Source: a candidate division WWE3 bacterium RIFOXYC2_FULL_42_13 (GTDB lineage: Bacteria; Patescibacteriota; WWE3; UBA101185; UBA10185). Taken from it: a DNA stretch of 39,886 nucleotides. This document shows, in pieces, positions 27,192 through 29,463 of this stretch; the first letter of the stretch is position 1; the number at the start of each line of letters is the position of its first letter. The notes under the pieces are model-generated. The model saw only the letters and a program-made list of their open reading frames with translations, made no database searches and was not told the origin of the DNA. The translations under genes were made by a program, and so were the position numbers. The stretch is from NCBI GenBank assembly GCA_001773255.1, contig MEWF01000014.1:9416-49301 (forward strand), given 5' to 3'.

Positions 27192-29447
27192 TTAAGATAC
27201 AAAATCATCCGGTTCTTCCGAATACGAAGGCCCGCCGCCAATCAACAGCTCCCTCGCCCTGCTCCCTCCTGCCGCGGGGCCGACAATTCCCTTCGCCTCC
27301 ATCTCATCAATTATTCTGGCGGCACGGGAAAATCCAATGGAAAGTTTCCTCTGCAGAAGAGAGGCCGATGCCTTGCCCATCGAACTTACAATATCCACAG
27401 CCTCGTCAAACAACGGATCTACGTCATCCCCCCAGGAACTGGAACTAACCCTACCATCCTTTTCCATGGACATACTCAGCACTTCATCCGAATAGTCGGG
27501 CTCGACTCCCCGACTTTTAAGATAGTTGACCAACCTATCTATTTCTTTTGCATCGATATACGCGCCCTGCAATCGAATAGGTTTCTGGGCGTCGGGCGGG
27601 ACAAAAAGCATATCTCCTCTCGTCAGCAACTTCTCTGCTCCCGGTTGATCGATAATAACCCTAGAGTCTATTTGGCTTGAAACACTAAACGCAACACGCG
27701 TAGGTATGTTTGCTTTTATTATCCCTGTAATAATGTCGATTGAAGGACGCTGGATAGCCAGAATAAGGTGAATGCCGGTAGATCTTGCCATCTGAGCAAG
27801 CCTCACGACCGCTTTCTCCACCGAATTCTTGTCCTGCATCATTACCTCGGCAAATTCGTCCACAACGATCACAATATACGGCAGAGCCTGAAATCCTGAA
27901 TTCTCATTGTATGCATCAAGATTTCTTACTCTGGCCTGCTCAAACAGTTTGAGACGTCTTTCCATTTCTTGAACTGCCCATTTAAATACCGCGGGGGTTT
28001 TTTCCATGTCCACTACTACAGGAGTTATAAGATGCGGAATATCCTGGTAGTGAATTAATTCGTTTCTCTTCGGATCTACCAAAATAAATTTCACTTCCTG
28101 CGGAGAAGCACGGAATAAAATTGAAAAAAGAATGTTGTGAATAAATATGGACTTTCCTGAATTAGTAGCACCGGCAATTAGCATATGAGGCATTTTGCCG
28201 ATGTCATAAACGTATGTTTTTCCCGCAACGTCCTTCCCTAATCCTACGGCAAGCTTAGTCTTAAGATTTTTCATGGCATCGGATGTGATTATAGATTTAA
28301 AATTGACCACCGACCGAACGGCGTTCGGAACTTCTATCCCTATCTCGGACGTACCGGGAATAGGTGCTTCCACTCTCACCGATCCGTTGGGGGATGCCAA
28401 AGCGAGTGCGAGATTTTCATGCAAAGAAGCTATCTTGGAAACTTTGGTCACTGATTTTGTTTTTAAAGCATATCGGGTAACGGACGGGCCCACTTTTGTA
28501 TTTGCCACCTCAACATCTATCCCAAAGGATTTTAGTGTTTCTACGATTTTTTTCTCGTTAGCCTTGGATTCCGAAAAATCCCTGGACTCTGCGACAGGTT
28601 CTATTAAAAGATCCAAAGGAGGTTCTACCCATATCCTGTTCGGCGGAGCAGTCAAAAAGTTCGTGGGCGATATGGTAGCAATCGTGGACGTTGCACCTTC
28701 AGGTATGATTATGGGAACTTTTTGAGGTTCGTACTGCGAGGGAATTATCTCAAACTCCGGGGTCTCTTCAACTTCGTCTCTCGCCGCTGATACTAATGCC
28801 GGAACGGGTTCATGAATCCCGCCATCAGAATCGATATTGTATTCGTCCTCACTTATTTCTTCAAAATCCCCGGCTTCTTCTTTCTTGAAAGGCCACATTC
28901 CTTTAAGGGGAAATTTTATTAAATCCTTTTTCTCCGAAATAAAACCAAGTACCTGGTCCAATGAAATATCAAAAAGTAAGATTGCCGAAATTAAAACAGC
29001 TAAAACGAGAAGAACAGCGGCTCCGTAAATACTCACGCCGCTTGCCAAAAAAGAGCTAATCTCGTAACCGATCATTCCTCCCCCCAAACCGTTCTCGGCC
29101 GCTTCCAGTGCATCATTCCTATTTATGAAAACATGGAAAAGACCGGATAAACCTAAAAGTGCCAAAACCAATCCTGCTACAATTCTCGGCTCTTTTAATT
29201 TTGCTTTTAGTTTCTGAATGAATAATGAGCCGGAAATAATAAGCAAAAAAGGTAATATGATTGACGGTTTCCCGAATAGACCGGTCATAAAACTCTTTAT
29301 TTTTGCGTTTACAGAGTAAGACGGGGCAAAAAAAGCGATGAGACTGAGAAGCCCTGCCGTTACAAGCACCAGCGCTATAACCGATCTTATAGTTTCGGGC
29401 TTTATACTGAAGTTGAGCTTAAATTTCCTTTTTCTTCCTCTAGGCAT
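27192..29447 (-). CDS. ftsK: DNA translocase FtsK/SpoIIIE
   Basis: N-terminal TM helices and a linker, then the motor domain (Walker A GATNSGKS, Walker B VIVVDEFAE) and a C-terminal winged-helix gamma domain (SASLLQRKLSIGFSRAARIIDEME). The ATG at 29447 (MPRGRKRKF...) is preferred over the track's TTG at 29486. Confidence 0.93.
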   Translation of the reverse strand: MPRGRKRKFKLNFSIKPETIRSVIALVLVTAGLLSLIAFFAPSYSVNAKIKSFMTGLFGKPSIILPFLLIISGSLFIQKLKAKLKEPRIVAGLVLALLGLSGLFHVFINRNDALEAAENGLGGGMIGYEISSFLASGVSIYGAAVLLVLAVLISAILLFDISLDQVLGFISEKKDLIKFPLKGMWPFKKEEAGDFEEISEDEYNIDSDGGIHEPVPALVSAARDEVEETPEFEIIPSQYEPQKVPIIIPEGATSTIATISPTNFLTAPPNRIWVEPPLDLLIEPVAESRDFSESKANEKKIVETLKSFGIDVEVANTKVGPSVTRYALKTKSVTKVSKIASLHENLALALASPNGSVRVEAPIPGTSEIGIEVPNAVRSVVNFKSIITSDAMKNLKTKLAVGLGKDVAGKTYVYDIGKMPHMLIAGATNSGKSIFIHNILFSILFRASPQEVKFILVDPKRNELIHYQDIPHLITPVVVDMEKTPAVFKWAVQEMERRLKLFEQARVRNLDAYNENSGFQALPYIVIVVDEFAEVMMQDKNSVEKAVVRLAQMARSTGIHLILAIQRPSIDIITGIIKANIPTRVAFSVSSQIDSRVIIDQPGAEKLLTRGDMLFVPPDAQKPIRLQGAYIDAKEIDRLVNYLKSRGVEPDYSDEVLSMSMEKDGRVSSSSWGDDVDPLFDEAVDIVSSMGKASASLLQRKLSIGFSRAARIIDEMEAKGIVGPAAGGSRARELLIGGGPSYSEEPDDFVS

Positions 29448-29454
29448 TGGCTCA

Positions 29455-29463
29455 ATTATATCA
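29455..29463 (-). promoter_or_regulatory. Extended -10 (TGaTATAAT), 7 nt upstream of the ftsK ATG at 29447
   Basis: The minus strand reads TGATATAAT tgagcca ATG. No SD is present. Confidence 0.45.

Follow-up and report, generated by a model that had tools for sequence, protein, structure and literature searches.

In a 39,886-nt stretch of Saccharibacteria DNA (hereafter the window; source genome of 780 kb, 27 contigs, 43% GC), several genes, among them ftsK, secA, prfB, and radC, revealed a -10 promoter box directly ahead of the start codon, and the mRNAs of these and other boxed genes probably start at or a few nucleotides before the AUG, presumably to be translated in a leaderless manner. 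In the mechanism proposed here, RNA polymerase would start at the A or G of the start codon itself where box and start codon are 6 nt apart, which is the commonest class (39% of cases). Where they are 7–10 nt apart, as in seven window genes listed by an earlier reading of the sequence only, transcription would start 1–4 nt before the start codon. Such mRNAs would have no room for a Shine-Dalgarno (SD) sequence; as in Actinobacteria, Deinococcus, and the lambda cI mRNA, the ribosome would presumably recognize an AUG or GUG located at or close to the 5' end. Since the strict motif stands before about 26% of all and about 37% of promoter-proximal genes, this would be the normal habit of the organism, one that the other sampled Saccharibacteria share.

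The check that had been suggested along with the sequence-only reading, namely the genome-wide distance between the -10 box and the start codon, revealed a sharp peak at 6–9 nt. For this analysis, 737 genes were called by a simple codon-usage model, and 650 of them were used with starts chosen from coding potential and start-codon type only, leaving upstream signals aside. A -10 box was counted as strict (or strong) if TAnnnT matched TATAAT in at least five of six positions, or in at least four of six when preceded by a TGn extension. Strict boxes occurred 66, 40, 28, and 26 times at distances of 6, 7, 8, and 9 nt, respectively, compared to 4 times at 5 nt, 10 times at 10 nt, 12 times at 11 nt, and about 5 times per position at 13–44 nt. 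Altogether, 170 of the 650 genes (26%) carried a strict box at 5–10 nt, a figure that is conservative because some starts were mis-called, while five equally wide control windows placed in these upstream regions captured only 23–37 genes (3.5–5.7%). An annotation-free count pointed in the same direction, with 69 occurrences of TATAAT-N6-9-ATG versus 31 of TATAAT-N20-23-ATG (ratio 2.2). As a negative control, the same pipeline was applied to 220 kb of a Patescibacteria genome from another class (G037), where no peak appeared (5.4% versus 7.1% in the controls); thus, the method itself does not produce the start-adjacent peak. An expectation-maximization (EM) mixture model with the classes leaderless, SD, and neither on a genome-wide background recovered the motifs T-G-n-T-A-t-A-A-T, with a spacing peak at 6 nt, and AGGAGg for SD. 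Its class fractions were dropped for poor calibration, as 147–176 genes were called leaderless on shuffled upstream regions compared to 299 on the real ones. A generic promoter scan was uninformative as well (38 promoter-like sites versus 31.4 expected), since promoters of the extended -10 type escape a scan that demands a -35 hexamer.

The frequency of the box depended on the position of a gene relative to its neighbors. A strict box at 5–10 nt was present at 37% of divergent first genes with a spacer of at least 60 nt (control about 6%), at 38% of same-strand genes with a spacer of 20–59 nt (control about 4%), and at 22% of same-strand genes with a spacer of at least 60 nt (control about 4%). 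For genes located less than 20 nt behind a same-strand neighbor, the value was 11% (control about 3.5%), corresponding to a 3.4-fold lower box frequency at tightly packed internal genes. With plain TANNNT at the same distance, divergent first genes reached 46% versus 8.8% for internal in-frame ATGs. Start codons of the box class were ATG in 153 and GTG in 17 cases, and TTG in none. Among first genes that had no start-adjacent box, 146 of 208 had a strict box at a greater distance within the spacer (median 53 nt); these genes are presumably leadered.

Four independent features of the boxes, among them their rarity before packed internal genes, are those expected of promoters, and the boxes are in all likelihood genuine sigma70-type -10 elements, many of them of the extended -10 type. 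Their consensus is TGnTAtAAT, and the TGn extension precedes TANNNT in 33% of cases at 5–10 nt, compared to 11% at other upstream positions and 5% within genes. Ahead of the boxes, TTGACA-like hexamers peaked at a 17-nt spacer (29 versus about 7) and were found mainly at boxes lacking TGn (25 of 90). TGn and the 17-nt-spaced -35 hexamer therefore appear to substitute for each other, which is the classical trade-off between extended -10 and -35 elements. In E. coli and Gram-positive bacteria, sigma70 promoters with an extended -10 (TGn) largely do without a -35 element. The boxes described here share the TGnTAnAAT consensus with them, but differ from the usual case in that the promoter directly joins the start codon, with the discriminator in place of a 5' untranslated region (UTR). 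In the 6-nt class, the base at -1 was a pyrimidine in 77% of cases and +1 was the A or G of the start codon, while in the 8- and 9-nt classes a purine was enriched at position 7 past the box (71–77%). Both the Y(-1)R(+1) pair of the predicted start site and the position-7 purine match published transcription start sites (TSSs), which are centered 7 bp downstream of the -10 element (PMC12641261).

Orthologues of the seven genes were analyzed by locating the N-terminus in relatives from genus to class level; a locus passed if an in-frame ATG or GTG within 10 codons had a strong box at 5–10 nt, and the same test at six shifted positions served as control. SecA relatives at 62–83% identity were almost all assigned to 'Candidatus Saccharibacteria', Saccharimonadales, or metagenome-assembled genomes of Patescibacteria, which identifies the organism as a Saccharibacterium (TM7). 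For secA, all 37 Saccharibacteria loci carried a strong box (0–1 at shifted positions), with a modal spacing of 9 nt in 30 loci, and for ftsK this was the case in 22 of 25 loci (shifted 0–1; modal spacing of 7 nt in 19 loci). All nine located prfB loci had a strong box at 7–9 nt (shifted 0; modal 9 nt), as had all ten located loci of a conserved 88-amino-acid (aa) open reading frame (ORF) at 6–9 nt (shifted 0–1; modal 8 nt) and nine of ten loci of a Zn-ribbon gene at 7–9 nt (shifted 0–1; modal 7 nt). For a gene encoding a TPR-containing protein, 8 of 16 loci passed the strict test (shifted 0–2; modal 8 nt), and the box was conserved throughout the genus. The radC gene passed the strict score in only 6 of 17 loci (shifted 0; modal 6 nt), a low count due to its weak box; TAnnnT at 6–10 nt from the ATG could be seen in most members of the family. 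At position 7 past the box, 97% of the secA and 100% of the ftsK loci had a purine, with pyrimidines on both sides, which predicts leaders of 3 nt for secA and 1 nt for ftsK. The window copy of secA has a spacing of 10 nt and a G at position 8, which again predicts a 3-nt leader. While the bases between box and ATG, and those upstream of the box, turn over freely, the gene-specific spacing is held. Judging from this pattern, the arrangement of box and start is under purifying selection, and the gene-specific spacing suggests selection on the exact leader length.

Initiation at SD sequences was analyzed in the same genome. The 3' end of the 16S rRNA (...GGATCACCTCCTTTCT) is a canonical anti-SD, and strong duplexes with this tail (dG <= -7 kcal/mol) were predicted for 24% of starts versus 9–11% in control windows. 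Box and SD turned out to be exclusive, with 168 genes having the box only, 132 the SD only, and 2 both. About 40–55% of genes, by either SD definition, had neither signal; their upstream regions are A/T-rich with a T at -1. At the same dG threshold, a strong SD was found at 32% of internal and 20% of divergent first genes (controls 8–13%). The sequence-only reading had proposed two modes, leaderless for operon-first genes and SD-led for internal ones. This proved to be a tendency, not a rule, given these SD values, a box at 37% of divergent first versus 11% of packed internal genes, and about half of the genes with neither. SD-led initiation is, by these predicted duplexes, real but a minority mode, mostly of operon-internal genes such as those of the ribosomal-protein/rpoA cluster. 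Loss of ribosomal protein S1 or bS21 was considered as an explanation and rejected, since a four-domain S1 and bS21 are both present. With S1, bS21, and the anti-SD kept, the leaderless habit is not explained by a loss of the SD machinery. The S1 gene (G000:C10:13238-14290) is a 402-aa open frame with four S1 domains; its match of 259 bits lies under the rpsA equivalog cut-off of 577, and it resembles the Gram-positive type, not the six-domain protein of E. coli. In the negative-control genome (G037, C1:1-220000), SD sequences were also not clearly enriched (15% versus 11%).

Within the window, 9 of about 37 genes revealed a strong box at 5–10 nt, compared to about 2 expected. Gene identities were confirmed with Pfam, which supported the names FtsK, RF2, RadC, S15, the TPR protein, RNase J, and the ClpB-type AAA+ protein as well as S12, S7, IF-1, S13, S11, S4, RpoA, L17, L13, S9, and PNPase; the Zn-ribbon gene, the 88-aa ORF, and a gene described as 'tasA-like' gave no Pfam match. 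On re-reading, the seven -10 motifs listed at first, with their coordinates, spacings, and ATGs, and rpsO, listed as a near case, were exact to the base (Table 1). Likewise, the seven genes were said to have no purine-rich SD, and no GGAG, GAGG, or AGGA core was seen in the last 16 nt upstream of them. Further sites were absent from the first list. The -10 box of the ClpB-type gene sits within the last codons of the gene upstream, and the weaker box of RNase J is embedded in the 3' end of the upstream gene. SD sequences claimed for operon-internal genes were found at rpsL (GGAG), rpsD (GAGGAG), rplQ (AAGGAG), rpsI (AAGGTGA), and rpoA, and the tasA-like gene is SD-led as well (GGGAGGGGGTGA).

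Table 1. Start-adjacent -10 boxes, the rpsO promoter, and Shine-Dalgarno sequences for comparison; positions are those of the window.
Gene	Motif	Position	Strand	Distance to ATG	ATG	Remark
ftsK	extended -10 TGATATAAT	29455..29463	-	7 nt	29447	start codon 29445-29447
secA	extended -10 TGATATAAT	14115..14123	-	10 nt	14104	
Zn-ribbon gene	extended -10 TGTTATAAT	33878..33886	-	7 nt	33870	
prfB (RF2)	extended -10 TGGTATAAT	25876..25884	+	9 nt	25894	
conserved 88-aa ORF	extended -10 TGGTAGAAT	27178..27186	-	8 nt	27169	
TPR-containing gene	-10 TATAAT	8948..8953	+	8 nt	8962	
radC	promoter: -35 TTGTAA (21500-21505), 17-nt spacer, -10 TAGATT (21523-21528)	21500..21528	+	7 nt	21536	overlaps palindrome 21499-21518
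ClpB-type AAA+ gene	TGATATTCT	23283..23291	+	6 nt	23298	absent from first list
spermidine-synthase-like gene	TGATAGTAT	15676..15684	-	8 nt	15667	absent from first list
RNase J	TTGTAAACT	31256..31264	-	6 nt	31249	weaker case, absent from first list
rpsO	extended -10 TGATACCAT	36447..36455	-	12 nt	36434	near case
rpoA	SD AAGGAGGA	18905..18912	+	4 nt	18917	operon-internal gene
rpsG	SD AAGGAGG	753-759	-			

Some observations weigh against leaderless expression of these genes. The sequence-only reading had placed the transcript starts at or within about 3 nt of the AUG, which is supported; by the 7-nt rule, however, the seven window examples have predicted leaders of 1–4 nt and not of zero length, and extra 5' nucleotides lower leaderless translation in E. 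coli. The same genes had been regarded as first in their transcription units, while five of the seven lie 22–80 nt behind a same-strand gene, so that this status rests on the promoter itself. Short same-strand spacers precede secA, prfB, the 88-aa ORF, and the Zn-ribbon gene. Among four such spacers in the scanned part of the window (20001-39886, with the secA spacer outside it), a terminator-like hairpin was found only before the 88-aa ORF, and longer read-through mRNAs may also carry these genes. Finally, the genes with neither signal leave room for a third mode of initiation or for start-call errors, one of which was found at lepB (see below).

These points bear most directly on the explanation that the boxes are real but represent secondary promoters, while longer transcripts, due to read-through or upstream initiation, account for most of the expression and the leaderless or mini-leader isoform contributes little. 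It would agree with the short spacers and the single hairpin, and also with the box at 11% of genes located less than 20 nt behind a neighbor, where it is embedded in the upstream gene. On a read-through transcript, though, ribosomes could be recruited to these starts neither by an SD nor by a 5' end. In addition, the exact spacing of box and ATG and the position-7 purine are kept across the class, which implies selection on the short-leader isoform, and divergent first genes, which are immune to read-through, are among those with the highest box frequencies. Thus, we consider this explanation unlikely. Even less probable, to a marked degree, is a non-SD translation signal, i.e., that the A/T-rich box is a 'group B' motif (see below) or an S1-binding site on leadered mRNAs. 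While a four-domain S1 is encoded in the genome, most genes have no SD, and upstream regions are A/T-rich in all classes, a translation signal would be expected equally before internal genes, where the box is rare. Furthermore, TGn and a -35 hexamer at 17 nt are contacts of RNA polymerase, not of the ribosome, and the consensus is exactly TGnTAtAAT. That the peak results from base composition, from in-frame TAA or TAG stops upstream of starts, or from mis-called starts is barely conceivable: TAnnnT can hold an in-frame stop, in-frame distances of 0, 3, and 12 nt are slightly raised (7–9 versus about 5), and the EM model over-called on shuffled regions, but the peak covers the out-of-frame distances of 7 and 8 nt, control windows of the same spacers reach only 4–6%, G037 displays no peak while the annotation-free counts do, and N-termini and boxes are conserved together in orthologues.

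Leaderless transcription of this kind has been described for 'group C' bacteria, in which a Pribnow box 6–8 nt from the starts of first genes marks leaderless transcription of 25–50% of operons; it is typical of Actinobacteria and Deinococcus-Thermus and was validated by differential RNA sequencing (dRNA-seq) in M. tuberculosis and D. deserti (PMC6028130). In terms of sequence signals, the architecture found here is that of GeneMarkS-2 group C, i.e., a known mechanism in a new lineage and not a new kind of system. The box is sharply localized at 6–9 nt from the start and occurs at 37% of divergent first genes, the bias towards first genes with SD sequences at internal ones is present as a tendency, and the share falls within 25–50%. 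As in group C, a box at 6–8 nt occurs at promoter-proximal genes, SD sequences are found at internal or leadered genes, and the anti-SD is retained. Unlike the known members, this one belongs to Saccharibacteria/Patescibacteria, has a genome of 0.8 Mb with 43% GC, and is known here from sequence alone. It further differs from them by a long 7–10 nt shoulder predicting leaders of 1–4 nt and by unusually low SD use even at internal genes. In Mycobacterium, the -10 element is a looser TANNNT, while the consensus here comes close to a complete TATAAT, and between about a third and a half of the boxes carry TGn. Leaderless transcription in archaea (GeneMarkS-2 group D; Haloferax, Sulfolobus) is similar in that many first genes are leaderless and SD or other signals are used internally, but there the TATA box lies about 26 nt upstream and the transcription machinery is different. 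Group B, the non-SD type of Bacteroidetes and cyanobacteria, likewise has few SD genes and an A/T-rich motif near the start. That motif, however, is not a promoter and stands alike before first and internal genes, while the box described here is depleted internally and displays promoter features.

No paper linking leaderless expression with Saccharibacteria, Patescibacteria, or the Candidate Phyla Radiation was found in the literature searched, which also contained no analysis relating TSSs to start codons for any Saccharibacterium. A study using 188 TSSs of TM7x did not relate them to start codons (PMC12641261), and a preprint on the TM7x transcriptome contained no TSS, promoter, or UTR analysis. 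If the leaderless explanation is true, a large part of gene expression in these ultrasmall epibionts would dispense with 5' UTRs. Hardly any space would then be left for riboswitches, for attenuation in leaders, or for autoregulation through leaders like those of rpsO or prfB, and control would lie at the promoter. Apart from extending the leaderless habit to a little-studied lineage, this may be of use for annotation and engineering of the newly tractable Saccharibacteria, where an extended -10 box placed 6–9 nt from the ATG may be a better choice for expression cassettes than an SD.

Regarding its spread, 200-kb samples from two other families of Saccharimonadia (G019 and G023) revealed a strict box at 5–10 nt in 22–24% of genes, and a 200-kb sample from another class of Patescibacteria (G092) in 34% (controls for the three samples 5–6%). 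The annotation-free ratio of TATAAT-N6-9-ATG to TATAAT-N20-23-ATG was 1.4–2.5 in all eight genomes sampled from the class; among other Patescibacteria, 129 genomes were informative, with a median of 1.3 and a ratio of at least 2 in 31 of them, counts that are descriptive as related genomes are not independent. Within families, the ratio was consistent, with some at 2–4 and others near 1. Being present in the class, patchy in other Patescibacteria, and absent from whole families there, the trait lends itself to studying why bacteria change between SD-led and leaderless modes of initiation. More speculatively, and in our view with the odds rather against it, selection may act on leader length gene by gene in Saccharibacteria and, in a patchy manner, in other members of the Patescibacteria. 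The 9 nt of secA (predicted 3-nt leader) and the 7 nt of ftsK (predicted 1-nt leader) are kept across class-level divergence, with turnover of the bases in between. In that case, leaders of 0–4 nt would tune translation efficiency where 5' UTR-based control is largely given up, and the scattering of the trait between families would mark repeated switches in initiation strategy.

The boxes were also compared with start-codon choice. For ftsK, the ATG at 29447 had been preferred over the TTG at 29486, and the conserved N-terminus MPRGRKRK confirmed this choice; similarly, the start of the Zn-ribbon gene was settled at ATG 33870 by its N-terminus MSRNCPQCGR. For lepB, a start at ATG 8979 was rejected because the extension, which would run 18 nt into the divergent TPR gene, contains a stop in two same-genus relatives. 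The conserved lepB start is ATG 8928 (MNIKRHF...), and the long frame was an error of the gene caller. The divergent spacer between lepB and the TPR gene is therefore 33 bp, in which TATAAT (+) and TACCAT (-) stand back to back. In Saccharibacteria, the -10 box can thus guide start placement, and gene finders that assume an SD will misplace starts. Via the GeneMarkS-2 component of the Prokaryotic Genome Annotation Pipeline (PGAP), the leaderless signal is probably already exploited implicitly in annotations.

The promoter of rpsO differs from the seven in its distance. It combines its extended -10 box with a -35 hexamer TTGATT at a 17-nt spacer, no SD is present, and a TGnTAnnAT box was found 9–13 nt (mostly 10–12 nt) from the ATG in most sampled relatives of the class. 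By this spacing, rpsO is a short-leader gene with a predicted leader of about 4–6 nt rather than a leaderless one. In E. coli, rpsO has an S15-binding autoregulatory leader. The class-wide conserved promoter at 10–12 nt from the ATG (region 36432-36478) leaves no room for such a leader. The prfB gene (25894-26901) encodes a protein of 335 aa with PCRF and RF-1 domains in a single open frame, beginning 28 nt after the preceding gene. The usual programmed +1 frameshift and its SD-like stimulator are absent, which fits an organism making little use of SD sequences.

Upstream of the ftsK box (29464-29490), a block TTGCGTAACTTTGGTTGTCGTAA containing an imperfect direct repeat (TTGCGTAA / TTGTCGTAA) was detected. 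Four of the six relatives from the same genus keep it almost unchanged, which is not the case outside the genus; it may be a regulator site. In the case of radC, the 62-nt spacer between this gene and a divergent gene for a 91-aa HTH_3 (XRE-type) regulator (21198-21473) harbors the 20-bp palindrome ATTGTAATGTACATTGCAAT (21499-21518), whose left arm supplies the -35 hexamer TTGTAA of radC. Since TTGCAA-type repeats recur upstream of radC across the family, the palindrome is predicted to be, and probably is, an operator for the neighboring HTH_3 regulator.

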